From positions 1 to 58,325 of IMG/VR virus record IMGVR_UViG_3300006919_000061: 58,325 bases of DNA. One strand, written 5' to 3'. The stretch is from a virus. Taxonomy: Duplodnaviria; Caudoviricetes. Shown here one piece after another: positions 1 to 13,310 of this stretch. Each line of letters starts with the position of its first letter. The stretch's first letter is position 1. The position numbers and the translations under genes are program-made. Under the pieces are notes generated by a model. The model saw nothing but the letters and a program-made list of their open reading frames with translations, did not search any database and was not told the DNA's origin.

Positions 1-20
1 GGGGGACCCGAAGGCCCCCC
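1..20 (-). terminator. GC-rich hairpin with cUUCGg loop (terminator or 3' end of a candidate ncRNA)
   Basis: Minus strand reads GGGGGGCC-TTCG-GGTCCCCC; any U-tract would lie outside the window. Confidence 0.55.
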
Positions 21-340
21 GTTCCTGTCTTTCTCTCATACCCATCTTCCACAACGAGTATCGACGCCCAACCAGTGTACGACATATAGACGCGGGGCTG
101 GTTGGACTTCTACTTTATCGATGTAGCGTCGCTAGGGTTCTTATACAGTGAACCTAGTAAACTGGACAACATTTAGGCCTTGTTACCGCTGGCCGCGTAC
201 AGTTGACTCGCGTTGACAGTGCCTCTGTCAAAGACCCCTCTCATCAGGGGATGGAGCGCCCCATATCGAGCTGCAGGCTCTCAGGACGGCTTCTTGCGTT
301 GCGGTGCAAGCTGAGCCACCAAGCCGGACTCTTGCGAGTT
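21..340 (-). ncRNA. Candidate structured non-coding RNA, family unknown
   Basis: No credible ORF. Dense stems: 62-67/126-131, 68-75/98-105, 132-140/150-157, 213-219/225-231, 235-239/246-250, 287-292/321-326, 293-297/306-310. Strand inferred from neighbouring genes and the UUCG hairpin. Confidence 0.5.
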
Positions 341-348
341 ACTTGGAT

Positions 349-693
349 TTATCGGTCGCGGAAAGCGATTTCTTCACGGTAGCGTTGTGCAGCACGCGTG
401 AGCTTAGTTGCACGCACATAGGTGTGAATGCCAACAGGCCACACACTCCACACCAACAGGCAGGTACCTGCGTAGTTACCAAGCGCACGGTCTGTGCACA
501 TGTTGGCACGCACACGCAGTTGCTTGATGTTAAGGTGTGAGGAATCGTACGAGTCCTCGATGAGGCGCTTGTACAGGTTGCCACTAACCTCAGCTTGGAA
601 GTGCCCGTAGTCACGGGCGGTGTACTGAGGCTTGGACGCATCGGCGCTGAGGGACAGAGTCAACGCAGCGAAAAGGAAAAGAATGTAACGCAT
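349..693 (-). CDS. Hypothetical secreted protein (N-terminal signal peptide)
   Basis: 114 aa; MRYILFLFAALTLSLSADA signal-like N-terminus; TAATG coupling with the upstream ORF. Confidence 0.75.
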   Translation of the reverse strand: MRYILFLFAALTLSLSADASKPQYTARDYGHFQAEVSGNLYKRLIEDSYDSSHLNIKQLRVRANMCTDRALGNYAGTCLLVWSVWPVGIHTYVRATKLTRAAQRYREEIAFRDR

Positions 694-995
694 TACTTCT
701 TGTTTTTCTTGTTAGACTTCTTAGCCTCGGCGCGAGTCGCCATGAGCTTCTTGTAAGCCTTGCCGTCACAGACAGACTCGGCCAAGAAGTGAGCAGGCAC
801 TTGAATAGGCGAGAACTTGCGCCCCGTAATAACACAGGTCATCTGCCATGCACCTTCGCTGTCGTAGACAGGGGTGTTGGGGATAACTTGGACACCGTAC
901 TTACCCTCGGGCTTAGAGCCGAGGACAGCAGTGGTGTTACGAGACAACTTGGGTAGCTCAGAGAGCTTGTGGAACTTCTTCATTTGAGGTGCCAT
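693..995 (-). CDS. Hypothetical basic protein
   Basis: ~100 aa with a Lys-rich C-terminus; stop overlaps the next start; start could also be 983. Confidence 0.75.
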   Translation of the reverse strand: MAPQMKKFHKLSELPKLSRNTTAVLGSKPEGKYGVQVIPNTPVYDSEGAWQMTCVITGRKFSPIQVPAHFLAESVCDGKAYKKLMATRAEAKKSNKKNKK

Positions 996-1047
996 TGGTG
1001 CTAGTATTAGCGGTGTGCCCGTCAAGGGTGGAGCACGATACCCTGAA

Positions 1048-1455
1048 TTACTTGGTGATGGCGATGGTCAACTCGTCAGTCTTGTAACAAACGAGCCTAT
1101 CGGTCTCGTTCAGGTAGTAGAACTGAAAGTCTTCATCACCATACTCGAGGAGCACTCCGTCAATAGACCACGTGGAGGCCAACGTAATTTCTTCACTAAC
1201 AGCAACAGAGTCGTTGACAAAGACGATAGACTCGGTCTCGGGGGTTTCGCCATCTTGGTAGATAGTGACCGTGTAGGTCTTACCGTAGTAGAAACCGTAG
1301 GTGTAACCGGAGTAACCGGGGTCAGTCGTGGCAATACCACCGTCGAACACGTCAGTCGTGTCGGTAGCTGGTGGGCAAACGTTGGGCTCGTTCTCGATGG
1401 GAGTACAAGCGAAAAGCGTTGCGCTGATGAGCGCGAAAAGGAACATGTTTTTCAT
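1048..1455 (-). CDS. Putative lipoprotein
   Basis: MKNMFLFALISATLFAC lipobox followed by an acidic mature region. Confidence 0.75.
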   Translation of the reverse strand: MKNMFLFALISATLFACTPIENEPNVCPPATDTTDVFDGGIATTDPGYSGYTYGFYYGKTYTVTIYQDGETPETESIVFVNDSVAVSEEITLASTWSIDGVLLEYGDEDFQFYYLNETDRLVCYKTDELTIAITK

Positions 1456-1480
1456 GGGGAAGGGGGTTTACAAGGGAAAA

Positions 1481-1510
1481 GTATCCCCACCTCCGAAGAG
1501 GCAGGGATAC
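1481..1510 (-). terminator. Intrinsic terminator-like hairpin
   Basis: Minus strand GTATCCCTGCCTC-TTCG-GAGGTGGGGATAC followed by TTTTCCC. Confidence 0.7.
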
Positions 1511-1544
1511 GTGTGTGGCACGCTGGTGCGTGTCAGCTCTGCAA

Positions 1545-1967
1545 TTAGGCAGTCACCGTGTCGGCAACCGGGTGGCCATTCCAACGGAACGCGTTACGCA
1601 CGCTGCTCTCGAAGTTGGAGTCGTCCTCGCTGGCCGGGACGAAACAAGTGTACGTGTTGACATCACGGAGCAGGGTGTTGCCTGCAACGCTGTCCTCAAT
1701 CTGGTACGTCTCGACATCGCGGGTAGCGAGCGAGCCCACGACTGCAGTGCCAACAGGGGCATTGAAGAGGTGGTTGTACGGAGAGTCCACGCCTTCTTGC
1801 CACGCGTTGAGCGTCTGGGTGGTGCTGTTACCAAGTGCATTGACGGTAGCCCCGGTAACAGGGTGAACCATCGTGTTGAACGTGGTGCAGGTGAGCGTGA
1901 TGGTCTTGAAGTTGCGACCGGACTTGTCAATGCCCTCGCGGACGGAAGTGATTTCGTTAAACGTCAT
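1545..1967 (-). CDS. Hypothetical protein (beta-rich, possibly OB-fold-like)
   Basis: 140 aa ORF with strong phage codon bias, flanked by hairpins; fold is speculative. Confidence 0.8.
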   Translation of the reverse strand: MTFNEITSVREGIDKSGRNFKTITLTCTTFNTMVHPVTGATVNALGNSTTQTLNAWQEGVDSPYNHLFNAPVGTAVVGSLATRDVETYQIEDSVAGNTLLRDVNTYTCFVPASEDDSNFESSVRNAFRWNGHPVADTVTA

Positions 1968-2006
1968 CGTGTTGAAATTAAAAGGGTTGGTGATACTAGA
2001 GAATTG

Positions 2007-2040
2007 CTAGCCCCCCACTCGTATCAAGGTGAGGGGCTAG
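2007..2040 (-). terminator. Intergenic hairpin
   Basis: Minus strand CTAGCCCCTCAC...GTGGGGGGCTAG inverted repeat just after the stop at 2048. Confidence 0.55.
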
Positions 2041-2047
2041 GGAAACT

Positions 2048-2236
2048 TCAGAGATAGGCAGATACAAGAACGTCCATCATAGCCTCGTCTTGGAAGAAGA
2101 GGTATGCTTCGCGCACATGTTCCTGCTCATGTTTGGGTGCCCGCTGCTTGAGCATGATATACTCGTTGCGGCGTTCACTCGTAAGGTTGCGGACTGAGGC
2201 CTTGATGCCGTCAATCCTCGTCTTGCTTGTTGGCAT
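2048..2236 (-). CDS. Hypothetical protein
   Basis: 62 aa, in an overlapping minus-strand gene string. Confidence 0.65.
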   Translation of the reverse strand: MPTSKTRIDGIKASVRNLTSERRNEYIMLKQRAPKHEQEHVREAYLFFQDEAMMDVLVSAYL

Positions 2237-2537
2237 GGTCAGAGATTTGTCTGATGATTTGCTCTACAGTTGGCTCTGCGTCGAGTCTTTTGATACACTC
2301 TTGGCAGCGCGCGCATTCCTCGTAGTACTCGGCTTCTTCAAAGAAACCAAGTGCTGCTTGCAGCTCCTGCTTCCACTGTACGCGGGGCAGGGTAATGTAA
2401 TTACCGGAAGGCTCCTCGATTTCGATAGAACCTTCGTTAAACTGGAGACCGTACTCGATACTCGTGATGATGCGTTGGACAGCTTCGACTACTGTGTGAA
2501 ACAGTGGGTCGTTGTCCGGGTCAAAAGTCTGGCTCAT
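2211..2537 (-). CDS. Small protein with C-terminal UVR (UvrB/UvrC)-like motif
   Basis: Start refined to MSQTFDPD; contains FEEAEYYEECARCQECIKRL. Confidence 0.7.
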   Translation of the reverse strand: MSQTFDPDNDPLFHTVVEAVQRIITSIEYGLQFNEGSIEIEEPSGNYITLPRVQWKQELQAALGFFEEAEYYEECARCQECIKRLDAEPTVEQIIRQISDHANKQDED

Positions 2538-2898
2538 CGGAGTCTGGTTCGGCTTCGTGTACAACGTCAATGCTAAGCTCAGCCAAGTGGTCGTTGAGTT
2601 CCATGTTGGAGGATACCTCACGAATCTCACGCATGCACTTGAATACCTTGGCACACTGCTCGTACTCCTCGTACTCTTCGAGCACCTTGAGGTAGTGTTG
2701 CAGTTCTTCGAGCCAAGAGCCGAGCATTTCACGCCACCCTTTGGTGCGAGTCTCACAAGCCTCGTAGAAGGCAGTCATGTGAAGCTCGGTGGCAGTCATA
2801 GCCTCGATACGAACTTCCTCGGGGGTAGGCTCAGGCAAGGGGCCCGAGTTACCGCCAAGGAATTCGTTAAAGAGGTCGTTCAGTTCATCATCAGACAT
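2521..2898 (-). CDS. Acidic protein with UVR-like motif
   Basis: Contains LEEYEEYEQCAKVFKCMREI, similar to the motif in the adjacent ORF. Confidence 0.7.
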   Translation of the reverse strand: MSDDELNDLFNEFLGGNSGPLPEPTPEEVRIEAMTATELHMTAFYEACETRTKGWREMLGSWLEELQHYLKVLEEYEEYEQCAKVFKCMREIREVSSNMELNDHLAELSIDVVHEAEPDSDEPDF

Positions 2899-3289
2899 CG
2901 CTATCGTCAGATTCGGAGTAGGTCACGCCGTCTTGGGGAGTCCAATCGAGCTGGTCGAGCATGGGATTGCCGTCCTCGTCGTAATAGATGCCTGCACAGG
3001 CAATCTTGTCATCGAAGATAGCCTCGACAATCGCGTCAGCTGTGGGGTCTGAGCTGCACTCGTTGAAGTGGTCGTACTTCTCACGCAAGATGAGCTCGTA
3101 ACGGTCGATGGTTCGGTAAGCCACGCGAAGCTCGTCATCCTTGGCGAACAGGGCTTCGTTGGACTGGTCGAGCCAACACTTGAAATTGCGACGACGCAAC
3201 TCGAGGTCGTTAGCAATACGAGCGTAGCGAGCGACAAAGTAAGCACAGGCGGCTACGGTAAGGATGTAGCCTAGAATCATGATTGTCAT
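2891..3289 (-). CDS. Membrane-anchored coiled-coil protein
   Basis: N-terminal hydrophobic helix, helical middle, acidic tail. Confidence 0.75.
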   Translation of the reverse strand: MTIMILGYILTVAACAYFVARYARIANDLELRRRNFKCWLDQSNEALFAKDDELRVAYRTIDRYELILREKYDHFNECSSDPTADAIVEAIFDDKIACAGIYYDEDGNPMLDQLDWTPQDGVTYSESDDSDV

Positions 3290-3366
3290 GGGGTGTAAGT
3301 AATTGAGAATGAAACAAATAAACGTGACATATACTTTGTCACTACTAATAGCAAATAGAGAAACTC

Positions 3367-3374
3367 AGCTCCCC
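3367..3374 (-). promoter_or_regulatory. GGGGAGCT intergenic element, copy 1
   Basis: Minus strand TAGGGGAGC-TGA-GTTTCTCTA-TTTGCT; one of seven co-oriented intergenic copies. Confidence 0.6.
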
Positions 3375-3382
3375 TACTCAGG

Positions 3383-3748
3383 TTAGCAGGACGACAAGTC
3401 CATCACGGGCAGCTGCGCTGCTTCGCATAAGTAAGTTGTGCTAAACAACGTGTCAAGAAGCTCGCGGTGTACAGACTCGATGATGAGCAGAGCTCGTCTG
3501 TCTCGGTCGGACGGAGAGCGCGATAGCTCCGTGTAAAAAGTTGGCGCGCCGTCATCGTATAAGATGAATGCGATGCCATCGCTGGTCTCGAACCGAGATA
3601 TGGACACGACAAGTGGCTCGTCTGCTGCGAAGATGTTGTACGCCTCGTCCACCATGCGACTGAACGCACCGGCGTGAACATATTGCGCAATGTTCTGCTC
3701 GTCAGAGCATTGCAACCTAAAGAATGGATGCTGAGATGGCATATACAT
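3383..3748 (-). CDS. Hypothetical protein
   Basis: Start refined to MYMPSQHPF, downstream of the hairpin at 3800-3827; ~121 aa. Confidence 0.65.
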   Translation of the reverse strand: MYMPSQHPFFRLQCSDEQNIAQYVHAGAFSRMVDEAYNIFAADEPLVVSISRFETSDGIAFILYDDGAPTFYTELSRSPSDRDRRALLIIESVHRELLDTLFSTTYLCEAAQLPVMDLSSC

Positions 3749-3799
3749 GATACCAATATACGATACAAATCGGTTGGAACAACCGAACCTGAAAGGGTA

Positions 3800-3827
3800 G
3801 TACCCCCACACCGAAGTGCAGGGGTAC
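3800..3827 (-). terminator. Intergenic hairpin with UUCG loop
   Basis: Minus strand GTACCCCTGCAC-TTCG-GTGTGGGGGTAC just after the stop at 3834. Confidence 0.6.
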
Positions 3828-3833
3828 CGAAGG

Positions 3834-4172
3834 TTAGAATGGCAGGGTTGGTGCCTCCATAGAGAGGTTGTAGTCAAGAGTCTCCGAGAAGTCGTAGGCA
3901 GCCTGCATTACAGCGGCATACACTTGATACTCGTACTCGTCTTGAGTCTTCTTGAGAAGATACTCAGCGCGTTCGCCGATGTGTGCAGCAGCCCGCACCA
4001 TATTGGTGTGCTGAGGCTGGCAGATGTCTTCGCGTACCCAATTGGTAACAGACACGAGAGCCATCATTGCGAAGTGGCTCTTGCTTGTAGGAACAGACAG
4101 AGCAGCAGTATTGGCCGCGAGGAGAATAGTCTCCCCTGCGGTCATACTGTCGATGGAGTCGCGACGGCTCAT
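3834..4172 (-). CDS. Hypothetical protein
   Basis: 112 aa; ATGA overlap with the upstream micro-ORF. Confidence 0.75.
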   Translation of the reverse strand: MSRRDSIDSMTAGETILLAANTAALSVPTSKSHFAMMALVSVTNWVREDICQPQHTNMVRAAAHIGERAEYLLKKTQDEYEYQVYAAVMQAAYDFSETLDYNLSMEAPTLPF

Positions 4173-4279
4173 TTGGCAACAACGATTACGCCGTTGATGG
4201 CAGAGAACACGCGAGGACGGGGCTGCACCGTAGTGGTTGCAACTGTGGATGGCTTGTTGCCGGGAATGTTGAGATACAT
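4169..4279 (-). CDS. 36-aa micro-ORF (not in supplied track)
   Basis: MYLNIPGNKPSTVATTTVQPRPRVFSAINGVIVVAK; stop overlaps the next start (ATGA). Confidence 0.6.
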   Translation of the reverse strand: MYLNIPGNKPSTVATTTVQPRPRVFSAINGVIVVAK

Positions 4280-4291
4280 GATGTTGTGGAA

Positions 4292-4363
4292 TTAACGTTG
4301 AAAGAGAAAAGAATAGGCGAATGTGAGTACGCCGAGAATTGGAAAGATTAATGCGAGATGCAT
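4292..4363 (-). CDS. 23-aa hydrophobic micropeptide (not in supplied track)
   Basis: MHLALIFPILGVLTFAYSFLFQR; single TM-like helix. Confidence 0.4.
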   Translation of the reverse strand: MHLALIFPILGVLTFAYSFLFQR

Positions 4364-4389
4364 GAAATATGTAGAGAATATGAGTTGCG

Positions 4390-4905
4390 AATAGAAAGCA
4401 CCGCAGGTGCGCTAGATGTCTTAGTAGGGTATAACCATACCTGCGGTGCTTAGCAGTTTGTCATCTTGCTGGATTACGTCGTCGCCCACACTGACCGCCA
4501 CCTTAGAGCGCGTTGACTGGACTATATGTACGACCTTTCTAAAGAACTAAGAGGAGTCGCGGTACTAAACCGACTGTGGTCGCAGTTCCCAACGAGCCCC
4601 TCTTCCTGCCACAGCAGGATGTGAGTAAGTCAGTGCTCCAAAGGCTGAGCCAAGGGATTAGGGAGTGTCCCGACACTGAACTTACGAATGAGAGCGAGAG
4701 TGTGCACCGTGCCCGTAGGCATCTTGAACGGCTACACACTCTCTAACTATGACTATGCAGTGCAAGCTGGCACCGGTACGCTGAATATGAGTCATGCTTT
4801 AGAACGTACGCTGGGCATGACTATGGATAGTCCCCTTAACGCTTAGCGGGGTATAGCGGTGACGTCTTGCGCGCGTCACTATTCAAGAAGCAAACAGAGA
4901 CCCGG
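4390..4905 (-). ncRNA. Candidate ~500-nt structured non-coding RNA
   Basis: No credible ORF. Nested long-range stems 4519-4525/4827-4833, 4528-4532/4805-4809, 4537-4544/4797-4804; internal arms 4625-4635/4674-4685 and 4696-4704/4735-4743; terminal 13-bp stem 4396-4408/4439-4451. Strand inferred from context. Confidence 0.6.
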
Positions 4906-4913
4906 AGCTCCCC
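4906..4913 (-). promoter_or_regulatory. GGGGAGCT intergenic element, copy 2
   Basis: Minus strand GTAGGGGGAGCTCCGGGTCTCTGTTTGCT, directly ahead of the candidate ncRNA. Confidence 0.6.
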
Positions 4914-4966
4914 CTACCCTGCACAGCTACCCCGAAGGGTAACTGTGAGAGTGGGATTGCAGAGAA

Positions 4967-5293
4967 TCAGACGGTGGCCCAAAAGACACCCTCTTTTTCT
5001 GCGTGCGGGCGGACATCGCGCAGGGTAATCTGGAGTCCCTCGCCGTCTTCGCCAAGAGCCTGCGACTCGAGGTCGGTGGCATTGAAGCGGTTGGGGTTGG
5101 ACTCGTCCTGCGTGAGGAGGCCTGCGATGTACTCGGACATCGAGTTGAGCGCGATGTTGACGAGAGCGTTGGACTCGACGCCTTGGCCGAGGACAGAATC
5201 GCCGGTGGACATCGTGGCTTGTGCGGCAACGTAGAACTTGCCATTCTTCTCGGACTTAGTGGCGCCGAAGACCTTGGTGATTTTAGCGTTCAT
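4967..5293 (-). CDS. Hypothetical protein
   Basis: Start refined to MNAKITKVFG; ~108 aa with strong codon bias. Confidence 0.8.
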   Translation of the reverse strand: MNAKITKVFGATKSEKNGKFYVAAQATMSTGDSVLGQGVESNALVNIALNSMSEYIAGLLTQDESNPNRFNATDLESQALGEDGEGLQITLRDVRPHAEKEGVFWATV

Positions 5294-5359
5294 GCTATTG
5301 TGTATTGAGGATAAAAGAGAAATTTGTGACTGAATGTCCACAAGCAAAAAGAGTTGCTA

Positions 5360-5367
5360 AGCTCCCC
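5360..5367 (-). promoter_or_regulatory. GGGGAGCT intergenic element, copy 3
   Basis: Minus strand GAGAGGGGGAGCTTAGCAACTCTTTTTGCT. Confidence 0.6.
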
Positions 5368-5419
5368 CTCTCGGCATATAGGTCAGCGCGTTAAGCGCCA
5401 ACCCATATACGGAGGATAG

Positions 5420-5773
5420 TTAGTCGATAATCTCGAACGTGACGGTGTCAGTGAACACCTCGCCGAGAATAATGTAGGACACCACGTAGGTGTAGCCGGC
5501 GACGTGCTCGAACAACATGGGGAAGTTTTCGTTGTCGATGATGAAGCCGTCTTGCCCCACAAGCGTAGGGTATGTGCCGATGGAACCAAAGTTCCAATCG
5601 TGGACAGTAGCGATGTCGTTGACAGGGTCGATGATGACAGAGGAGTCAACGTATTGGCCCTGAATGCGAGCATGGTATTGCGTCTGTGCGCAGGAGTGCA
5701 GGGCACAGCAGCAGAGCAACGTGGCCAAGAGAGACTTGGCGAGGTTGCGGAAGAAGGAAGTGTAGTCGTTCAT
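5420..5773 (-). CDS. Hypothetical secreted or lipoprotein-like protein
   Basis: Hydrophobic N-region with Cys residues (LLATLLCCCALHSCAQ), beta-rich remainder. Confidence 0.75.
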   Translation of the reverse strand: MNDYTSFFRNLAKSLLATLLCCCALHSCAQTQYHARIQGQYVDSSVIIDPVNDIATVHDWNFGSIGTYPTLVGQDGFIIDNENFPMLFEHVAGYTYVVSYIILGEVFTDTVTFEIID

Positions 5774-5895
5774 TTGTTGCGATAGTATTCGATGAGCATT
5801 GCACCGAGCGTTGCGATAGCAAACAGCCCGGCGATAATAACGATGACGCCGGCCATGTTGCCGACGTCGAGAAGAAGGGATTCTTGTTCAGACAT
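5770..5895 (-). CDS. 41-aa single-TM micropeptide (not in supplied track)
   Basis: MSEQESLLLDVGNMAGVIVIIAGLFAIATLGAMLIEYYRNK; overlaps both neighbours. Confidence 0.7.
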   Translation of the reverse strand: MSEQESLLLDVGNMAGVIVIIAGLFAIATLGAMLIEYYRNK

Positions 5896-6115
5896 TGAGA
5901 GAATTGAATGTGTTGCCGGTCATGTAGAACTCGCGGACGAGTATCTTGCTGCCGTCGTCGTCGTAGTCGTTGTCGGCGAACACCCGAACGAGGGTGTCGT
6001 TGGCAGAGAGTTCTGGTGCATAGGTGGAGAACTCAACATCGACACCGGTGTAGTAGTCGTTGACCTCGTCGATGACTGCTTGAGCGTCGTCAATGGAAGT
6101 TATGTTGTAAGACAT
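5888..6115 (-). CDS. Small acidic hypothetical protein
   Basis: Start refined to MSYNITSIDD; ~75 aa. Confidence 0.75.
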   Translation of the reverse strand: MSYNITSIDDAQAVIDEVNDYYTGVDVEFSTYAPELSANDTLVRVFADNDYDDDGSKILVREFYMTGNTFNSLNV

Positions 6116-6131
6116 GAGAGAAGGGTTGAAC

Positions 6132-6239
6132 TTACCCGCGCAAAGAGCGCAGGTAAGCGATGAGAGAAGGAATGAGCATGAGCACTGTGAGTGTGCAGCC
6201 TGCAATGAAATTGAGCTGGTATGGAGTGAAATCTTGCAT
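6132..6239 (-). CDS. 35-aa single-TM micropeptide (not in supplied track)
   Basis: MQDFTPYQLNFIAGCTLTVLMLIPSLIAYLRSLRG; fills the gap and shares a CAACCCTTCTC leader with the 6115 gene. Confidence 0.6.
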   Translation of the reverse strand: MQDFTPYQLNFIAGCTLTVLMLIPSLIAYLRSLRG

Positions 6240-6259
6240 GGGAGAAGGGTTGTGTCCCC

Positions 6260-6553
6260 TCAGCACGAAGCTGAGAGGACGGTGTCTTGGACTTTGTGGA
6301 GCAGGGCGTTTGCCTCTTGGAGAAGCATTGCAGTGGTGCGCAGGCGAGCGAGGTCTTCCTCGCAGAAGTCGTTCGGGTACTCTGCCATGTAGTCAGCGCA
6401 GGTATCTGCGATGTCTTGGTAGTCTGCGTTGATGAAGCGGGAAGCTTGCTTGACGCGGACTGCGAGCATATGTGAGACTGCTCGGTTTTGCATTGCGTTG
6501 AGCGTGACAGAGACTGAGCCGAGCTTGACGAGGAGTTTACAGAGATTTTGCAT
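6260..6553 (-). CDS. Hypothetical helical protein
   Basis: Start refined to MQNLCKLL; ~97 aa. Confidence 0.75.
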   Translation of the reverse strand: MQNLCKLLVKLGSVSVTLNAMQNRAVSHMLAVRVKQASRFINADYQDIADTCADYMAEYPNDFCEEDLARLRTTAMLLQEANALLHKVQDTVLSASC

Positions 6554-6593
6554 AGAATATGTGTTTGAATGCGTAGCATGAGTTAGGAACTTG

Positions 6594-6601
6594 AGCTCCC
6601 C
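6594..6601 (-). promoter_or_regulatory. GGGGAGCT intergenic element, copy 4
   Basis: Minus strand GGGGGGAGC-TCAA-GTTCCT. Confidence 0.6.
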
Positions 6602-6649
6602 CCACAGACCCACACGCCACCCGTCAAGGGCAGCGTATGAGTTTGCAGA

Positions 6650-6895
6650 TTACTTGGTCAAGTCCATCTCCGCGAATGGGATGTTGAACTCGCGCGCCAA
6701 ACACTCGAACGCGGGAACCAAACCGTGAGCGATTTGAGTGCACTGGTTGCTGCCTGCCGCGTAGGAGACAGACCAACAGAAGTATGCGCCCTCTTCGGTG
6801 TACTCGATGACGAACTGGTCATACGTGAACACGTTGTCAGCGATGTTCTGAGAAACGATAGAGAGGAGCTTGAGGGTACGGGTGATGATGTCCAT
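6650..6895 (-). CDS. Hypothetical protein
   Basis: Start refined to MDIITRTL; ~81 aa. Confidence 0.7.
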   Translation of the reverse strand: MDIITRTLKLLSIVSQNIADNVFTYDQFVIEYTEEGAYFCWSVSYAAGSNQCTQIAHGLVPAFECLAREFNIPFAEMDLTK

Positions 6896-6934
6896 GGGAC
6901 GAAAATTGAAAAATGAGAAAAAAGAAAAGGGGAA

Positions 6935-6962
6935 GAACCCCACGCTATTATGCGCAGGGTTC
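6935..6962 (-). terminator. Intrinsic terminator-like hairpin
   Basis: Minus strand GAACCCTGCGC...GCGTGGGGTTC followed by TTCCCCTTTTCTTTTTT. Confidence 0.65.
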
Positions 6963-6968
6963 CGAAGA

Positions 6969-7178
6969 TTAGAAGTCGGTGGTGAAGTGTGCACCGATTG
7001 GTTTGTCTTTGAGAGCGAGGTACTCATTGTGACTGATGGTGTCGTCACACAATTCTTGTCCATACGCACCACAGAACGTGAGGTGAACAGACGTACCATC
7101 AAAACTGTGGTCAACGAGAACGTCCTCGATGTAGGTTTGACCACTGTTGTATTGTTCGATGAGAGTAGAAATATCCAT
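6969..7178 (-). CDS. Small acidic hypothetical protein
   Basis: Start refined to MDISTLIEQ; ~69 aa. Confidence 0.7.
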   Translation of the reverse strand: MDISTLIEQYNSGQTYIEDVLVDHSFDGTSVHLTFCGAYGQELCDDTISHNEYLALKDKPIGAHFTTDF

Positions 7179-7199
7179 AGACAGCGAGAAGAGAAGCGA

Positions 7200-7207
7200 A
7201 GCTCCCC
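7200..7207 (-). promoter_or_regulatory. GGGGAGCT intergenic element, copy 5
   Basis: Minus strand GGGGGAGC-TTC-GCTTCTC. Confidence 0.6.
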
Positions 7208-7228
7208 CACAGGGCATATGCCCATCAG

Positions 7229-7318
7229 TCAGAGACTGACGAGCACAGCGATTGCGAGAGGTACAGCGAACAGCAGGATTACTGGCCATACGGAAGCGGA
7301 GTTGTCTTCGTGATACAT
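7229..7318 (-). CDS. 29-aa single-TM micropeptide
   Basis: MYHEDNSASVWPVILLFAVPLAIAVLVSL. Confidence 0.55.
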   Translation of the reverse strand: MYHEDNSASVWPVILLFAVPLAIAVLVSL

Positions 7319-7329
7319 AAGAGAGAGGA

Positions 7330-7491
7330 TTAGGGGTTCATACGCTTGTAGTAGTTCATTCTGACCTTGATTTGGGCAAAGTTGATGAATTTGGAACGAG
7401 CGTTCTTGAAGTCTGTGATACCACAGGGAACAGATGGCCCTTTGTACAGAGACTTGAGAGTTGGTGTGGTTGGGGTTGGAGGGAAAGGCAT
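7330..7491 (-). CDS. Small basic hypothetical protein
   Basis: MPFPPTPTTPTLKSLY..., 53 aa, downstream of the 7506-7532 hairpin. Confidence 0.55.
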   Translation of the reverse strand: MPFPPTPTTPTLKSLYKGPSVPCGITDFKNARSKFINFAQIKVRMNYYKRMNP

Positions 7492-7505
7492 GAGAAAGAG
7501 AGTTT

Positions 7506-7532
7506 GAGGGGCACACGTAGTGTGCACCCCTC
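7506..7532 (-). terminator. Intergenic hairpin
   Basis: Minus strand GAGGGGTGCACAC-TAC-GTGTGCCCCTC just after the stop at 7538. Confidence 0.55.
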
Positions 7533-7537
7533 GGTGA

Positions 7538-7771
7538 TTAGAATACTTGCTTGTAGCCGAGTTTGACGAGGTCAGAGATGACCATGTAAGCGGTGGTTTG
7601 GTGAGCACCAATGAAGAGCTCACATGTTGCTTTGTTGTCATCGTTCATGCAGAAGAGGACATGTTGACCTGCATCCTTGTCGAATGACATGTTGAACTGG
7701 GTAGTCTTGGATGCGTAGTGAACGTGACTTACGGCAGTATTTGCAGTTTTGCGGCAATCAGATACAGACAT
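7538..7771 (-). CDS. Hypothetical protein
   Basis: Start refined to MSVSDCRK; ~77 aa. Confidence 0.7.
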   Translation of the reverse strand: MSVSDCRKTANTAVSHVHYASKTTQFNMSFDKDAGQHVLFCMNDDNKATCELFIGAHQTTAYMVISDLVKLGYKQVF

Positions 7772-7920
7772 TTGTATGGATGTTTGAGAGATGGGGTGAC
7801 AACTTGTCACATAGTGGTGGAATGTATGTCAGTATGACAGACAGGGGAAAGGGGTGGAACATAGCGCACACGGCTTGGCATGCACGTAACTGTCCACGTT
7901 TACCCCTCCATCTGTTAGCC

Positions 7921-7938
7921 CGGATGTTTTAGCTCCCC
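7921..7938 (-). repeat. 18-bp direct repeat containing GGGGAGCT (copy 6)
   Basis: CGGATGTTTTAGCTCCCC, identical to 8200-8217. Confidence 0.85.
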
Positions 7939-7989
7939 ATTAGTGGTAATAGTAGAGCACATACAGTGCCCTACCTTACCTTACTTACC

Positions 7990-8187
7990 TTACCTACGGA
8001 CCTTAACAAGGGTATCCTTGGGATACTTGTCCATGTGTGCTTGCATGTCACACTTGTCTACAAGTTGCATGTCAATATCGGTTACGCCTGTAGTATTACA
8101 GGTGTATACTTCTGTGACTGAGTACAGCGTAGCTGGTACATCACAGCAATCCTCCACGATAACGTGGTCAAGAGTATAACTATCCAT
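7990..8187 (-). CDS. Hypothetical protein, first gene of the leftward block
   Basis: 65 aa, bracketed by the two 18-bp repeats. Confidence 0.6.
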   Translation of the reverse strand: MDSYTLDHVIVEDCCDVPATLYSVTEVYTCNTTGVTDIDMQLVDKCDMQAHMDKYPKDTLVKVRR

Positions 8188-8199
8188 AGATAGTTGGTA

Positions 8200-8217
8200 C
8201 GGATGTTTTAGCTCCCC
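8200..8217 (-). repeat. 18-bp direct repeat containing GGGGAGCT (copy 7)
   Basis: Identical to 7921-7938. Confidence 0.85.
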
Positions 8218-8610
8218 TTCACAGAATCTAGTGGGGGGTACTTGATTGTCTTTTGTTGCGGGGGGCCTTGGCCTAATGTGGTCCCCACTTACGCTTCCCC
8301 AGAAGATTTCCCCATGTACCAGTAAAGGGCGGGGGGTTCATATATGGGAGCTGAGGGGTGGGGGCCTTATATAGGAGGTAGCCTATGGAGTGCGCGAATC
8401 CCGTTAGGATTCTTGGCCACATGTATTGGACGGGGTTCCACCCAGAGGCACTAGACGGCAGACATGCCTAATGTACAGTATGAGCAGGGATTCGTGTTAA
8501 CTCCTCGCGGATGGCTGCGCCATCGCTTTTAGCTTCTTACTGCCGTAGCAGTTAGCAGGTCAGGCTGCGCCTGTCGCTCTTAGCTGCTTAGCAGCGTCGC
8601 TAACACTTTA
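8218..8610. other. Non-coding strand-switch region (possible origin, terminus or control region)
   Basis: Gene orientation flips here; G-runs at 8231-8365; four short-loop hairpins at 8510-8595. Confidence 0.5.
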
Positions 8611-8611
8611 G

Positions 8612-8642
8612 CAAAGCTACACAGAATTCTGACATACGCAAG
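8612..8642 (-). promoter_or_regulatory. Bacteroidota sigma70-type promoter, leftward
   Basis: Minus strand CTTG-N19-TAGCTTTG matches the -33/-7 consensus TTTG-N19-21-TAnnTTTG. Confidence 0.65.
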
Positions 8643-8726
8643 TTTACGGCAAGGAATCTCATAGAAGTGGCCACATTGTCAGGTGTGTCATGTCTGTGTC
8701 AGGTATAAGCATGACAGTATGGCAGT

Positions 8727-8758
8727 GTTGCATGACACGCTGTCATGTTGTATATTGT
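8727..8758 (+). promoter_or_regulatory. Host-type promoter, rightward, probably leaderless
   Basis: GTTG-N20-TATATTGT-N4-ATG(8763); palindrome CATGACA-CGC-TGTCATG in the spacer. Confidence 0.5.
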
Positions 8759-8762
8759 GCTT

Positions 8763-9014
8763 ATGGAAGAGGTATTCGGCGTGTACAACGTAATTCTTGG
8801 TGCAGAGACCATGGCCTTGTTAGGCATGGGGCTTATGCAGTACAGGTGGTGGCGGGAGCGCAAGGACGAGAAGCTGCGTAAGCAACTAGACGACCAAGCG
8901 GCGCTTATAAGCCAGCGTAACATCTGGCGCAATAGAGCCATTAGGGAGAATGAGCAGTGGAAGGCCTACAAACATGACACTACTAAGGACAAGCGCTTTT
9001 CTTCAAAGGCATAA
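8763..9014 (+). CDS. Small membrane protein with coiled-coil tail
   Basis: Hydrophobic ALLGMGLM segment then a charged helix; ATG start at 8763. Confidence 0.65.
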   Translation: MEEVFGVYNVILGAETMALLGMGLMQYRWWRERKDEKLRKQLDDQAALISQRNIWRNRAIRENEQWKAYKHDTTKDKRFSSKA

Positions 9015-9178
9015 CTTGTATATTGTAGGGTTATAGGTTCCTGATTTTTTTGGAGCCCCCAAAGGGGTCAGACGCTTCTTACACTTGTCGACGAAACCTG
9101 CGTACTCACTGGGTCCATAGGAGACTTACGTCGTATAACGGGCTTGCTTTTCGATAGGTTCTTCGCGACATTAGTAGT

Positions 9179-9706
9179 ATGAAGCGCGTTATCTCTCTTC
9201 TCCTTACGCTCTTCTGGTTCAGCCTCGCAATGTCCTTGGCTGGTCAGGAGTGCGCAGATGGTGTGAATGTAATCCGGCATCGCACCAGTGTTTCATTAGC
9301 CAAAGTCAACAGTCACCCCGGTGGCCGTTGGTCTTCGACTAAAGCGCGATTGCCTAAAGGCATGGTAGTTTCTACCCAGCCTCGTGGCACTGTATGGCTC
9401 AACCCCTTTCAGGGGAGTGGGCGCCGGTCTAACTCGCCAGACTTTCCGTTGGAAAGGTGCGCAATCCTCGCCTTTACTGGCGTAGGCATTGGGTACTTGG
9501 CAGAAGACCAAAGTATGGCTTGGAAAGTAGGAGCACCTGCAATAGTTGTGGCTACTGCACTCCCGTTTCCCGGTCAGGCCCGTCAGGGTCAGTTCGCAAG
9601 TAGGCGCAAGATTGGACGAAAGGCCCTTGGGTTTTTCGCCATGACCGTGAGCTACGCCATCGGTATGGGGATAGGCCAGAATCTCCACATGGATTCTCCT
9701 AACTAA
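9179..9706 (+). CDS. Hypothetical membrane protein with signal peptide
   Basis: 175 aa; signal-like N-terminus and several hydrophobic segments; preceded by CTTG-N20-GACATTAG-N4-ATG. Confidence 0.6.
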   Translation: MKRVISLLLTLFWFSLAMSLAGQECADGVNVIRHRTSVSLAKVNSHPGGRWSSTKARLPKGMVVSTQPRGTVWLNPFQGSGRRSNSPDFPLERCAILAFTGVGIGYLAEDQSMAWKVGAPAIVVATALPFPGQARQGQFASRRKIGRKALGFFAMTVSYAIGMGIGQNLHMDSPN

Positions 9707-9746
9707 TACCGACGTTGTAGTAGACTTCGTCTATATGTGAATAAAG

Positions 9747-9790
9747 TCCCCGTTCGGTTTTGCCGTTCGGGGATTTTTTCTTTAGTTTAG
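9747..9790 (+). terminator. Terminator overlapping a host-type promoter
   Basis: TCCCCG...CGGGGA-TTTTTT; TTTG(9759-9762)-N20-TAGTTTAG(9783-9790). Confidence 0.6.
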
Positions 9791-9795
9791 GACCT

Positions 9796-10008
9796 ATGCC
9801 AACTAAGCGTCGGAATAATGGTCTCTTTACGTGGGACGATGCGCAATGCTTCATCGGAATGGATGGAGTCATTGCTACGTCGTATACTAACGACCACATC
9901 ACTATCACGTTTGTGCAAAACGGAGAGGGAACTCTTACGGACTTTGCGTACGAGACCGACGAGACAGACGGCGAAGTTAGAATCAACCTTACGGAAACTG
10001 TAGCATGA
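9796..10008 (+). CDS. Small acidic hypothetical protein
   Basis: MPTKRRNNGLF..., 70 aa; ATGA overlap with the next gene. Confidence 0.7.
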   Translation: MPTKRRNNGLFTWDDAQCFIGMDGVIATSYTNDHITITFVQNGEGTLTDFAYETDETDGEVRINLTETVA

Positions 10009-10226
10009 CCGTTGAAGTTATCCAAGCCCGCGCAGAAGCGGCACAGAAAGAATTGCAAGCTCGCATTACGGAGCTGCAGAATCTTCAGAAGCGTTCTGAA
10101 GACCTCAATGTGACAATCCATAACATTAAAGTACAGATTGCCACTTATAACGACCTACTTACGGACGATATTTCGGAGAAGGAGACCGAAGTTCGTGAGA
10201 CAATGGAGTCGCTCGTGAGCGAGTGA
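10005..10226 (+). CDS. Coiled-coil protein
   Basis: 73 aa with heptad pattern. Confidence 0.75.
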   Translation: MTVEVIQARAEAAQKELQARITELQNLQKRSEDLNVTIHNIKVQIATYNDLLTDDISEKETEVRETMESLVSE

Positions 10227-10271
10227 CAGTGCGTTACACCGGTTCGCGCAGGTGTTTCGTTACTTTAGGGC

Positions 10272-10298
10272 GCCCTCCAGCAACGGCTGGGGGGTTTG
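10272..10298 (+). terminator. Hairpin terminator
   Basis: GCCCTCCAGC-AACG-GCTGGGGGGT followed by TT. Confidence 0.5.
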
Positions 10299-10372
10299 CC
10301 ATTTCTAGGGGTAGGTAACTTTTGCAAGCTGGGCATATTGACTTCGTCGTTTATTTTGCTTAGCTTGTATAC

Positions 10373-10630
10373 ATGTTTAATCTCCTTCTCCCCCTGCTGG
10401 CCCTTGGGCTGGCGCAAGAGCCGTGTAACAGTTTTTGTAACGCGGACATCAATGACGACGGTGTTGTCAACATTGTAGACCTTCAGACGTTTCTTAGGTA
10501 TTTCGACGGTAACGTTGATGAGAACACGGACCTCATCGACATGAACTGCGACGGCTTGGAAACCATTACAGATTACACTATCTTGTTGTCGTTCTACGGA
10601 CAGACACTGCCTAGCAACCTCTGTAAATAA
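10373..10630 (+). CDS. Secreted dockerin-like (duplicated Ca-binding F-hand) protein
   Basis: Signal peptide; DINDDGVVNIVD-LQTFLRYF and DMNCDGLETITD-YTILLSFY repeats. Confidence 0.75.
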   Translation: MFNLLLPLLALGLAQEPCNSFCNADINDDGVVNIVDLQTFLRYFDGNVDENTDLIDMNCDGLETITDYTILLSFYGQTLPSNLCK

Positions 10631-10631
10631 A

Positions 10632-10931
10632 ATGTCTAAGATGCTGCCCACCATTCAGTCATTGTTTCCAATGTCAAAAGGCGCTTACCTTGCCGTGACT
10701 TTTCTTAGTCTTGCTGGTGGCGCTGGATATGTGCAGATGCAGTCTAGCATGGAGCGAATCATTGACCTCCAAGAAAAGACTCGTGAGGATATCCACAGCA
10801 TTGATGTGCGACTCACGGTGGTAGAGCACCGTCTTGATAACACTATTGTTTTCAAGTCAGCCCCTGAAGAGGAGCTGATAGTTGCAGAAACAGACTCCAT
10901 GTACTCTAATCCATACATGGTTAACTTCTAA
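10632..10931 (+). CDS. Single-TM coiled-coil protein (possibly lysis-related)
   Basis: TM segment AYLAVTFLSLAGGAGYV then DIHSIDVRLTVVE; start may be 10671. Confidence 0.65.
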   Translation: MSKMLPTIQSLFPMSKGAYLAVTFLSLAGGAGYVQMQSSMERIIDLQEKTREDIHSIDVRLTVVEHRLDNTIVFKSAPEEELIVAETDSMYSNPYMVNF

Positions 10932-10965
10932 CCCCCAGAGCCTATCTAGCTCTACATTGTAAGTC

Positions 10966-10996
10966 AGGGGCCTCCGAAAGGGGGCCTCTTTCTTTT
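10966..10996 (+). terminator. Intrinsic terminator
   Basis: AGGGGCCTCC-GAAA-GGGGGCCTCT-TTCTTTT. Confidence 0.8.
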
Positions 10997-11003
10997 GCTA
11001 CTA

Positions 11004-11035
11004 TTTGCAGGTATGATATGAGCAGCGTATATTTA
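11004..11035 (+). promoter_or_regulatory. Host-type promoter for the packaging operon
   Basis: TTTG-N20-TATATTTA-N5-ATG(11041). Confidence 0.65.
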
Positions 11036-11040
11036 TACAC

Positions 11041-11328
11041 ATGGAAGCAGAAAAGAAAGGGATATTCTACCGCCTCTATAACTTCAAGTCCGGGTCATAC
11101 CAGACTGTGCGGTTTACAGAGAAGGTAGATGGAGAACACATCCCCGGCACGACCAACGAAGAAGTAGTCGAGATGCTCATTGACCGTTTTGAGCATTTGA
11201 CACAGCGGTCGTGGTCTGTCGAAAACGAACTAGTTCTGTCTCTCCTGCATGTAATCAAGGGCGCACTGCGCCGTAGGTTAGGAAGGAAGATTCAGAACGT
11301 AAAGAAATGGACAAATGGCGAAGGGTAA
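11041..11328 (+). CDS. Acb2/Tad1-like helical hairpin protein (tentative)
   Basis: GTTNEEVVEMLIDRFEHL...SVENELVLSLL...ALRRR resembles the family pattern as recalled; not verified by HMM. Confidence 0.55.
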   Translation: MEAEKKGIFYRLYNFKSGSYQTVRFTEKVDGEHIPGTTNEEVVEMLIDRFEHLTQRSWSVENELVLSLLHVIKGALRRRLGRKIQNVKKWTNGEG

Positions 11329-11656
11329 AGTAAGAGTACCTGTAACGCTAGGCGGCACACGCGATTACCTCTCCCTTCTCAACGGCATACTCAAGTTGAC
11401 AGCCGTTGAGTTAGATGTACTTGCAGCGTTCCTAGACGTGGATGCCTTTATTTGTGCGACTAAGAAAGGCCGCCGCATTGTAGCGGAGAAGCTTGGCATG
11501 AAGAACGTAGCTGTTTTGAATAACTACGTAAAGTCGCTGAAGGACAAAGGTGTTATCTACAAAGACCAATTCGGTAGCTATAAGTATATTGATATTGTCT
11601 CTCCTCGCATGGAGTTAGAGAGTATTGAGTTTACTATTAGCGACTTACCCGAATGA
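11315..11656 (+). CDS. Winged-HTH DNA-binding protein
   Basis: RRIVAEKLGMKNVAVLNNYVKSLKDKGVI HTH/wing pattern; typical position upstream of the crAss-like packaging genes. Confidence 0.7.
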   Translation: MAKGKVRVPVTLGGTRDYLSLLNGILKLTAVELDVLAAFLDVDAFICATKKGRRIVAEKLGMKNVAVLNNYVKSLKDKGVIYKDQFGSYKYIDIVSPRMELESIEFTISDLPE

Positions 11657-11862
11657 ACCGCTCATCACTTCAAGTAGTCTTCCGATTTCCGGATGAGTTT
11701 GACCTTGTGTTCCCATACCTGACTAAGCAGAAAGAGGTCTTGAAAAAGCAGGGACAGCCAATGCTGCCCTACAAGATTATGCAAGGAGAGCACGAAACTG
11801 TAGTTGAATTTCAGATGAACGAAGATGATTGGAATAACCCACTCGGGTTGAACGACCTCTGA
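11653..11862 (+). CDS. Hypothetical protein
   Basis: 69 aa; ATGA-coupled. Confidence 0.65.
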   Translation: MNRSSLQVVFRFPDEFDLVFPYLTKQKEVLKKQGQPMLPYKIMQGEHETVVEFQMNEDDWNNPLGLNDL

Positions 11863-11864
11863 TA

Positions 11865-12101
11865 ATGGCCGCTAACAAGTTAAAGGAGAAGCTTTACAAA
11901 GAGCTTGCAGAAGAATACGGAACTACGGTAGAGGAAATACGCTCTATTGTAGAATCCCAGTTTGAATTCTTGCGCAAGACTGTAGAGCATGGCGCCTTTG
12001 ACTCTGTGCGCATCCCATTCTTTGGCCGGTTTTACGTTAACCCTTACCGCTTGCACAAGCTAAACCTTGAGCGAGTACAGAAGAATAAGAAGAAGAAATG
12101 A
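11865..12101 (+). CDS. HU/IHF-like DNA-binding protein
   Basis: YKELAEEYGTTVEEIRSIVESQF...SVRIPFFGRFYV, HU/IHF signature. Confidence 0.8.
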   Translation: MAANKLKEKLYKELAEEYGTTVEEIRSIVESQFEFLRKTVEHGAFDSVRIPFFGRFYVNPYRLHKLNLERVQKNKKKK

Positions 12102-12670
12102 AGCTGTTTACGATGGAGGGGTTCAAGGTTGAGGTATCTCCGGAGCTGCGCAAGCTTGCTGCGTTCCGAGACCTCATTGCTGAAGACAAGAACCGGGACA
12201 AGAAGAACGCGTCCGACTGGTTTGCATACATCTACCACTTCTGTGATTACAAGTCCCCGTACCAGATGTACGAAGAGAAGGAGCGGCACATCCGCATCCT
12301 TAAGGACTTGAGGATAGAGCCAGACTTCAAGCTGACTACCCGCATGAAGGCTGCTATTGCTAAGTACCGGGAGCTGCAGGACACCCCTGCTACTCGGTCG
12401 TTGCGTACTACCCGCGAGGCGCTGCAATCTGCAGAACGTGGCGTTAAGGCCATGACCCGCAAGATTGACGAGTTGCTGGCTGGTGATGACGAGGACGAAA
12501 GCGATGGTACCCTTGAGGCAATCAAGCTGATTGAAAAGCTCATGGGTATCGCTGAGAAACTGCCTGCCGTTGTAAAGACTGTGGGTGACTTGGAGGAGCA
12601 GGTTAAGAAAGAGCAAGCTGCCGAAACTAAGCTACGCGGCGGTGGAAGCAAAGGATTATTTGAAGACTAA
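12098..12670 (+). CDS. Conserved crAss-like helical protein upstream of TerL (terminase small subunit candidate)
   Basis: 190 aa; YIYHFCDYKSPY motif and C-terminal RGGGSKGLFED; synteny. Confidence 0.6.
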   Translation: MKLFTMEGFKVEVSPELRKLAAFRDLIAEDKNRDKKNASDWFAYIYHFCDYKSPYQMYEEKERHIRILKDLRIEPDFKLTTRMKAAIAKYRELQDTPATRSLRTTREALQSAERGVKAMTRKIDELLAGDDEDESDGTLEAIKLIEKLMGIAEKLPAVVKTVGDLEEQVKKEQAAETKLRGGGSKGLFED

Positions 12671-12891
12671 TGGCTAAGTTTAAGTGTACTATTTGCCCCG
12701 GCAAAAAGGAATATAACGACGTGCTTACTATGCGTTTCCGCGATGGCGAGATTCAGCAGTTTGACGCCAACGACAACCGCATTGACATCTGTGAATGTGG
12801 CGCTAAGATGGACGAGGTTAAGACCAAGTCTGGACTAGGAGGTTTTGTCAAGGGCCCTAATGGTGGCACCGGCAACTTTAGAAGGTCATGA
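12670..12891 (+). CDS. Zn-ribbon protein
   Basis: FKCTIC...ICECGAKM Cys pairs. Confidence 0.65.
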   Translation: MAKFKCTICPGKKEYNDVLTMRFRDGEIQQFDANDNRIDICECGAKMDEVKTKSGLGGFVKGPNGGTGNFRRS

Positions 12892-13310
12892 GAGCAATTA
12901 ATGAAATCATACTGCACTGCTCCGCTACGCCGGAAGGCAGGCACCACGATGTCGCGGATATTCGTCGTTGGCACGTGGATGGTCGCGGATGGTCGGATGT
13001 TGGATATCACTATTGTATCCTACTGGACGGCACAGTTCAAGGCGGCCGTCCGGTTAGTCGCCAAGGAGCTCACGTTAAGGGCCGCAACAAAGGGACTATC
13101 GGCGTCTGCTACATTGGCGGGTGCGATAAGAACATGGAGCCCAAGGACACAATGAACCACGGACAAGAGAAGGCATTCTTGAATCTAGTGGAGACCTTGC
13201 GTAACGTGTATGGGGAGCTGACAGTCTCGGGTCACAATCAGTATTCACCCCACAAAGCATGTCCCTCATTCAAGGTGGCAGATAAGTGGCCCTGTATTAA
13301 TGATTACTAA
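12888..13310 (+). CDS. N-acetylmuramoyl-L-alanine amidase (T7 lysozyme-like endolysin)
   Basis: IILHCSAT, GWSDVGYHY, GAHVKG, IGVCYIGG and GH...KACPSF Zn-amidase motifs. Confidence 0.93.
   Translation: MRAINEIILHCSATPEGRHHDVADIRRWHVDGRGWSDVGYHYCILLDGTVQGGRPVSRQGAHVKGRNKGTIGVCYIGGCDKNMEPKDTMNHGQEKAFLNLVETLRNVYGELTVSGHNQYSPHKACPSFKVADKWPCINDY

Follow-up and report, generated by a model that had tools for sequence, protein, structure and literature searches.

A G-rich word at the heads of leftward units in an uncultured crAss-like phage as a candidate start signal for the virion RNA polymerase

Introduction

Phages of the crAss-like group are among the most abundant known. Their infection is started by an injected RNA polymerase (RNAP), the start signal of which is undefined in the searchable papers. 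The stretch of DNA analyzed here (the window) is the entire 58,325-nucleotide contig IMGVR_UViG_3300006919_000061 of an uncultured marine phage, and its layout is crAss-like. A G-rich octamer, GGGGAGCT, recurs between the small genes of its leftward block. What does this word do, and what would read it? Our favored answer, to which we assign about an even chance, is that the core GGGAGCT acts as a promoter or initiation signal peculiar to this lineage and read by the virion RNAP, within cassettes that combine a hairpin with a start. The sequences show the motif, where it is placed, and how it is conserved and replaced among relatives; that it marks a start site, and which polymerase reads it, we infer.

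Full-text literature searches on crAss-like phages, virion RNAPs, and early promoters or start sites, with supplementary files outside their scope, turned up no definition of a promoter for this polymerase. The main text of a 2023 review (PMC10136315) does not contain the word "promoter". An earlier, sequence-only reading of the window had likewise known of no defined consensus for promoters of the virion RNAP of crAss-like phages, in agreement with the preprint on phage phi14:2.

A strand-specific word between the leftward genes

The window contains the exact octamer GGGGAGCT nine times. The minus strand carries seven of these copies (positions 3367, 4906, 5360, 6594, 7200, 7931 and 8210) and the plus strand two (13212 and 32879). 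When the whole window is dinucleotide-shuffled (n = 100), both strands together contain 1.51 matches on average and five at most. None of the 100 shuffles reaches nine matches, which rules out a chance origin of the cluster. Variants with one mismatch are not enriched (49 observed versus 41.6 expected). By our gene calls, all seven minus-strand copies lie between genes and are co-oriented with them, in a region (3367–8217) of which about 29% is non-coding. The plus-strand copies fall within open reading frames (ORFs) at 12888–13310 and 32661–35354. These positions, the intergenic setting of the minus-strand copies and the location of the other two inside coding sequences are as the sequence-only reading had described them. 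It had also placed six copies ahead of start codons and one ahead of a candidate non-coding RNA, which agrees with our distances of 22–167 nt from the first G of the octamer to the next ATG. Six of the seven copies sit 9–54 nt past a stop codon.

The copies are described here in the direction of leftward transcription. Copy 1 (8210–8217) heads the whole leftward block, 30 nt before the ATG at 8187. Copy 2 (7931–7938) is located 167 nt before the ATG at 7771 and 16 nt past a hairpin at about 7971–7955. Both are kept in the related records G001 and L002 and belong to type B, the members of which share 18 identical nucleotides. Copy 3 (7200–7207, type A) lies 29 nt before the ATG at 7178 and 4 nt past a hairpin at about 7223–7212, in a spacer that is identical throughout in G001. 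Copy 4 (6594–6601) is positioned 22 or 48 nt before the ATG at 6579 or 6553, respectively, and 13 nt past a hairpin at about 6634–6614. Copy 5 (5360–5367, type A), with TTTGCT downstream, is found 74 nt before the ATG at 5293 and 13 nt past a hairpin at about 5403–5381. Copy 6 (4906–4913, type A) heads about 520 nt without an ORF, lies about 10 nt past a hairpin at about 4945–4924, and is missing in G001. Copy 7 (3367–3374, type A), the last of the cluster, is located 9 nt past the stop codon at 3383 and 85 nt before the ATG at 3289, and has no upstream hairpin.

Type A copies (first G at 7207, 5367, 4913 and 3374) follow a looser pattern of 33 nt, composed of the octamer, about 5 nt, TCTCT, and then TTTGCT or CTCGCT. 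Both the 18-bp identity of two copies and the TTTGCT that follows three of them had been noticed in the sequence-only reading and are confirmed; the TTTGCT has no −7 partner at the right spacing. The unit of the motif had to be revised, as had the list of its copies. The conserved core is the 7-mer GGGAGCT, usually with a preceding G, since the first G is an A at the G001 site orthologous to 3374. A plus-strand GGGAGCT, followed by GAG, had been overlooked at 8346–8352. Its place is the intergenic region between the divergent blocks, where 128 nt separate it from copy 1, and it heads a very highly conserved non-coding stretch that extends to about 8640. It is retained in G001 and L002, although its flanks differ in L002.

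Conservation and turnover of the word in relatives

A scan with a 17-nt word yielded only two relatives. G001 is a 21-kb record about 84% identical to the window across the leftward block. L002, with a terminase 89% identical, covers only the head of the block, where it has two leftward copies and the rightward copy in diverged flanks. In pairwise alignment with G001, GGGAGCT is unchanged at all six orthologous minus-strand sites (8217, 7938, 7207, 6601, 5367 and 3374 of the window) and at the plus-strand copy. At the site orthologous to 6601, the octamer is kept, the flanks are unalignable and the upstream hairpin is different. Read by eye, the hairpin ahead of copy 2 keeps its pairing in G001 through a change from A-T to C-G. 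The whole G001 record contains nine copies of GGGAGCT on the minus strand and one on the plus strand, versus one and none of the reversed control word. Seven of the minus-strand copies are in the head 4.3 kb, and the remaining two fall within ORFs that encode 154 and 404 residues. GGGAGCT is probably under purifying selection.

Copies are also lost and gained. The copy at 4913 has been lost from G001 together with about 210 nt downstream of it, and G001 has gained a copy before a gene that is absent from the window. The window genes at 7489–7330 and 6115–5888 are missing from G001. The indel boundaries that could be read by eye lie at C/T-rich leaders beside ATGs, not at the motif.

A different word is found in G002, a complete 85-kb record with 75% terminase identity and no GGGAGCT cluster. 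Its minus strand carries a 20-nt family with the core TAAAAAGAWGRC, of which six exact and two one-mismatch copies lie at 9243–13383 and two one-mismatch copies elsewhere. This interval is the head (first 4 kb) of a leftward module of about 33 kb that later runs into large genes. The copies follow hairpins and precede ATGs by about 30–80 nt. The head of the G002 module aligns with that of the window through common C-run blocks, and a variant of the G002 word, about 35 nt before the first gene, occupies the position homologous to that of copy 1. Since the outline GGG-N3-CTAAAA is common to the two head copies of the window and the G002 word, the two words may be diverged homologs.

Further relatives were sought by other routes. 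A nucleotide search with positions 3000–9000 against phage records gave no match, and a profile scan of viral contigs gave G001 only. In a scan of viral contigs with the large terminase (TerL), 80 loci were kept, and among the close ones only L002 reaches the head of the block. A scan of viral contigs with TAAAAAGAWGRC found more than one copy only in G002. A 16-nt degenerate word from the divergent region hit 82 loci, nearly all unrelated, and in blastn only G001 and G002 match the window. A homolog search returned 11 proteins of 55–98% identity, some of them on contigs of 12–40 kb. A scan with a 108-residue protein gave G001 and a metagenome contig (L166) that is 99.86% identical to the window and adds nothing.

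Host-type promoters in the two blocks

The pattern TTTG-N17-21-TAnnTT has 17 matches in the window versus 8.6 expected. The plus strand accounts for 14 of them, and the minus strand of positions 1–9300 has none. In the rightward block, these host-type sites come after hairpins and abut ATGs. Because they fill the slot behind the hairpins there and are absent from the leftward strand, the motif takes the promoter slot in the leftward block. Sites of sigma-70 type are not enriched (9 observed versus 10.5 expected). A promoter for the Bacteroidota primary sigma factor (−33 TTTG and −7 TAnnTTTG, 17–21 nt apart) was considered at the motif itself and rejected on the same minus-strand count of 0 of 17.

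Shine-Dalgarno sequences are missing ahead of the start codons. Such starts, together with the −33/−7-like sites that abut the ATGs of the rightward block, are both consistent with a Bacteroidota host.

The sequence-only reading had seen no host-type promoter in the leftward block, and for the pattern above this holds. It does not hold for a relaxed form: on the minus strand, TTG-N20-TATATTGG-N5-ATG at 3782–3746 directly follows a hairpin, precedes the gene at 3748 and is conserved in G001. Judged from its sequence, this site is probably a host-type promoter of leaderless style inside the leftward block.

Hairpins around the word

The sequence-only reading had most copies continue into a G-U-rich hairpin, and offered a protective or processing hairpin at the 5′ end of early RNAs as one reading of the motif. 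We folded 28 nt from each copy and compared the result with dinucleotide shuffles. A 5′-terminal stem that uses the motif forms at three of the seven window copies (7207, 6601 and 3374). Its energy lies between −5.3 and −7.7 kcal/mol and its z-score between −0.4 and −0.9, and the other four copies have no such stem in these folds. In G001 and L002, five of nine copies form such a stem, and all z-scores are above −1.3. A 5′ hairpin as a general feature is therefore rejected. The motif hairpin is a by-product of a G-rich word that runs into a leader rich in C and T, or characterizes a subset of copies at most.

A GC-rich hairpin is located 4–16 nt upstream of five of the seven copies and is lacking at copies 1 and 7; six more intergenic hairpins of the leftward block have no motif. 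A promoter with a hairpin in fixed register, as in coliphage N4, is rejected by the variable distance and size of these hairpins and their lack at two copies. An intrinsic terminator at the motif is rejected as well, as the spacers between hairpin and motif are not T-runs and the one hit of the terminator scan there (7210–7196) is the weak stem of the motif itself.

A start signal and its rivals

We propose that GGGAGCT would initiate transcription in both directions, leftward into one non-coding RNA and the small early genes that come first, and rightward into a non-coding stretch. The reader would most likely be the virion-delivered two-barrel RNAP encoded from 46816, a link that we draw by analogy. 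In the proposed cassette, the previous gene is followed by a GC-rich hairpin, the motif, a C/T-rich leader of 22–170 nt, and the ATG. The hairpin would stop or stabilize the upstream RNA, and the motif would restart transcription. The restriction of the copies to the first 4–5 kb would suit an immediate-early class, and the last copy (3374) would feed the longer genes downstream.

A start signal is favored because the word is strand-specific, intergenic and conserved, and changes as a set between lineages. Copy 1 at the head of the block and the mirror copy at 8346 opposite to it would make a divergent promoter pair, which needs no upstream transcript, unlike a terminator or a processing site. 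In G002, a different repeated word occupies the same slot, and in the window GGGAGCT takes the place that host-type promoters have behind the hairpins of the rightward block. The layout matches that of phage phi14:2, and the giant ORF with its DFDVD motif matches crAss-like RNAP genes. The sequence-only reading had arrived at a promoter or start signal too. Placement, co-orientation, conservation, the G002 slot and the division between the two kinds of promoter bear it out, all indirectly, whereas its general 5′ hairpin has been given up and its tie to the polymerase does not go beyond analogy.

Several points weigh against a start signal. The signal is short (7–8 nt), far shorter than promoters of T7 type, and hardly any position upstream of it is conserved. 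The word spans only the first 4.9 kb, whereas the replicative module of phi14:2 is wholly early. Three copies pair with the downstream C/T-rich sequence, and only via G-U, which would suit a role at the level of RNA. G001, which lacks copy 6, still has the 3′ two thirds of the non-coding RNA. In motif discovery across 15 other TerL-relative loci, a check of the kind named in the sequence-only reading, only G002 has a clear repeated word; the other 14 yielded either compositional-looking A/T-rich words or one local cluster, and FpV4, the closest cultured phage, has no word family with at least three copies at the head. The authors of the phi14:2 study report no common motif upstream of early transcripts (bioRxiv 10.1101/2020.03.07.982082), and the polymerase family may therefore not need a sequence-specific promoter.

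An element acting in RNA is an unlikely alternative to the start signal. The word would be transcribed from an upstream start and would serve either as a cleavage site that separates the units, with the hairpin as a protective 3′ end, or as the 5′ arm of a stabilizing stem-loop. Its strict strand-specificity, its position behind GC-rich hairpins at five of seven copies and the G-U pairing of three copies, workable only in RNA, agree with this. The motif also contains GGAG, the target of the T4 nuclease RegB. A RegB-type site would lie inside the ribosome-binding region of a phage that encodes such a nuclease; here GGAG is 15–160 nt from the ATGs of genes without Shine-Dalgarno sequences, and no nuclease family was recognized among the 10 leftward-block proteins searched, the rest of the genome being beyond the contig. 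However, the motif hairpin is present at only three of seven window copies and is no stabler than shuffles, the head copy and the rightward copy have no upstream gene, and the distance from hairpin to motif varies between 4 and 16 nt. We know of no general bacterial RNase preference that the G-rich octamer fits.

We regard a binding site for a regulator or elongation factor as equally improbable. The word could be an operator that shuts the early units off, or an ops-like leader site that loads an antiterminator for passage through the hairpins. A short conserved word at unit heads that varies between lineages is what co-evolution with a phage protein would produce, and the GTGAC...GTCAC palindromes, which follow two of the type A copies and also occur in the divergent region, suggest that protein-binding sites exist. 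Nevertheless, the word is asymmetric and co-oriented with transcription in all seven cases, which is unusual for dimeric repressors, and no other promoter-like element stands beside the copies. Sites of ops type usually occur once per operon.

Less probable still is a sequence-specific stop signal for the virion polymerase, in which hairpin and motif together would end each unit, as proposed for Thermus phage P23-45. According to the P23-45 study, the region served by a virion two-barrel RNAP can hold a conserved terminator motif besides a promoter motif, and the short distance of six window copies from the preceding stop codon fits a terminator. We rank this reading low because copy 1 stands ahead of the first gene, no unit that could be ended lies upstream of the plus-strand copy, and no copy of the G002 word closes the leftward module of that phage. 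Furthermore, no copies follow the later genes in the window or G001, copy 7 has no hairpin, and the six other intergenic hairpins of the block have no motif.

A promoter element for the host RNAP with an alternative or phage-supplied sigma factor is very doubtful: the word does occupy the promoter slot, and the host enzyme may pass through the block, to judge from two canonical terminators (at about 6960 and 1510), but the word has no conserved partner element at −35-like spacing, sites of sigma-70 type show no enrichment, and no sigma factor gene was recognized among the 10 block proteins compared with Pfam and PHROGs.

A broader form of the start-signal reading is that GGGAGCT and the G002 word are the first sequence-defined promoters of the virion two-barrel RNAP of Crassvirales, read directly by the enzyme, the specificity of which would drift between lineages. 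We consider this possible, at somewhat below an even chance. If it is true, natural pairs of polymerase and word could be used to map start-site choice in a family related to the eukaryotic polymerases of RNA interference. The sharp word of 7–8 nt and the different word in the same slot of G002 could serve as defined templates for transcription in vitro and help to locate early units in genomes of uncultured phages. Should the word instead prove to be a signal in RNA or for termination, it would still define the unit structure of the early region.

Non-coding stretches and palindromes near the word

The non-coding RNA candidate downstream of copy 6 (4395–4905, minus strand) has no coding signal and ends at a terminator-like hairpin and T-run at 4410–4398. 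Two modules, at about 4620–4546 and 4780–4697, are 78–85% identical to stretches in distant relatives (L006, L032 and L037), and their consensus folds keep five and six pairs, respectively, through two-sided changes. The candidate has no match in Rfam. In L006, the homologous stretches adjoin transfer RNA (tRNA) genes. The record of phage FpV4 (L168) has the same layout, with 2.3 kb without annotated genes in its leftward block (81438–83768), which may be the counterpart of this region. In L002, the head copies are 137 nt apart (835–698, minus strand), with no ORF and only small hairpins between them, and could delimit a short RNA unit.

The divergent stretch at 8225–8660 is about 97% identical to G001, compared with about 80% for the neighboring genes. 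Several GCTAA/TTAGC words and C-runs occur in it, and L002 and G002 have recognizable parts of it. Folded as RNA, either strand has a z-score of about −1, which gives no support for structure. Possible roles of the stretch are those of an origin, of a region for packaging or at a genome end, or of the body of a rightward RNA that begins at 8346.

Palindromes of the GTGAC...GTCAC type are located at 3342–3324 and 4877–4857 on the minus strand, downstream of copies 7 and 6, and a similar one at 8730–8748 on the plus strand precedes the first rightward gene. Operators and RNA stems are both candidate roles for them. In G001, the leader past copy 7 is nearly identical.

Contig layout

The leftward block (349–8187, minus strand) is composed of about 23 small genes without known families, and only its first 4.9 kb contains the motif. 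None of 10 proteins of the block has a Pfam match, and the sole PHROGs match among them is one at the 0.01 cut-off. The two canonical terminators of the block, at about 6960 and 1510, consist of a hairpin and a T-run. C/T-rich runs of 8–12 nt abut many leftward ATGs (7489, 7318, 6239, 6115, 5895 and 1455), tight gene junctions included.

The rightward module encodes the large terminase (13300–15333), the portal and the major head protein, as assigned with PHROGs. It is closed by the ORF of the presumed virion RNAP (46816–58323, plus strand), which is open-ended, spans 3836 residues and has DFDVD at residue 3072. The ORF has no match among Pfam, PHROGs and PDB sequences. In tblastn, its central part is 23–25% identical to crAss-like genes annotated as putative RNAP (catalytic) subunits, including those in two records of Cellulophaga baltica phages. 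The phage thus presumably carries its own RNAP. By terminase, the nearest cultured phages are Flavobacterium phages of the FpV4 group, with 39% TerL identity. A tRNA search of the window found none. A search of positions 1–13000 against Rfam, with E-values up to 1, gave no match near any motif copy, the sole two hits being at 9678 and 10966.

Comparison with known systems

Promoters of T7-class polymerases consist of a phage-specific word that is co-oriented with the genes and differs between related phages, and T7 transcripts begin with GGGAGA. The window word is likewise phage-specific, co-oriented and G-rich. However, it has only 7–8 conserved nucleotides and no upstream block, and the two-barrel enzyme is unrelated to T7 RNAP.

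The promoters of the coliphage N4 virion RNAP are hairpins in fixed register with the first transcribed nucleotide. The window resembles N4 in that an injected giant polymerase would transcribe the first genes at the genome end, with hairpins near the starts. In contrast to N4, the window hairpins are 4–16 nt away from the motif, variable in size and missing at two of seven copies. A parallel between N4 and crAss-like phages has been drawn in a review (PMC10136315).

According to the respective preprint, Thermus phage P23-45 has a conserved promoter motif at 14 start sites and a 26-nt terminator motif at seven sites near the left end (bioRxiv 10.1101/2022.12.01.518664). It is similar to the window in its virion two-barrel RNAP and in the cluster of pre-early units at the genome end. 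Its AT-rich promoter motif was connected with mapped starts and with chromatin immunoprecipitation sequencing, whereas the window word is G-rich and known from its sequence.

In phi14:2, transcription of the module that faces the structural genes is early and resistant to rifampicin, and abundant non-coding RNAs are among its products (bioRxiv 10.1101/2020.03.07.982082). In crAss001, a short operon at a genome end forms the earliest class. The lineage of the window has an obvious word, unlike phi14:2, for which no common motif was found upstream of the early 5′ ends. The two phages are alike in genome layout, in a polymerase with DFDxD and in non-coding RNAs among the early genes.

Among described architectures, the PeSL (promoter-early stem-loop) cassettes of T4-type phages come closest. 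They are composite units of terminator and promoter between variable small genes of unknown function in a plastic early region (PMC4122927). PeSL promoters are early promoters for host sigma-70, whereas the window word is unlike host promoters, and the readable boundaries of indels between the window and G001 lie at the C/T-rich leaders by the ATGs rather than at the motif. As in the PeSL regions, genes have been gained and lost between the close relatives, here the window and G001.

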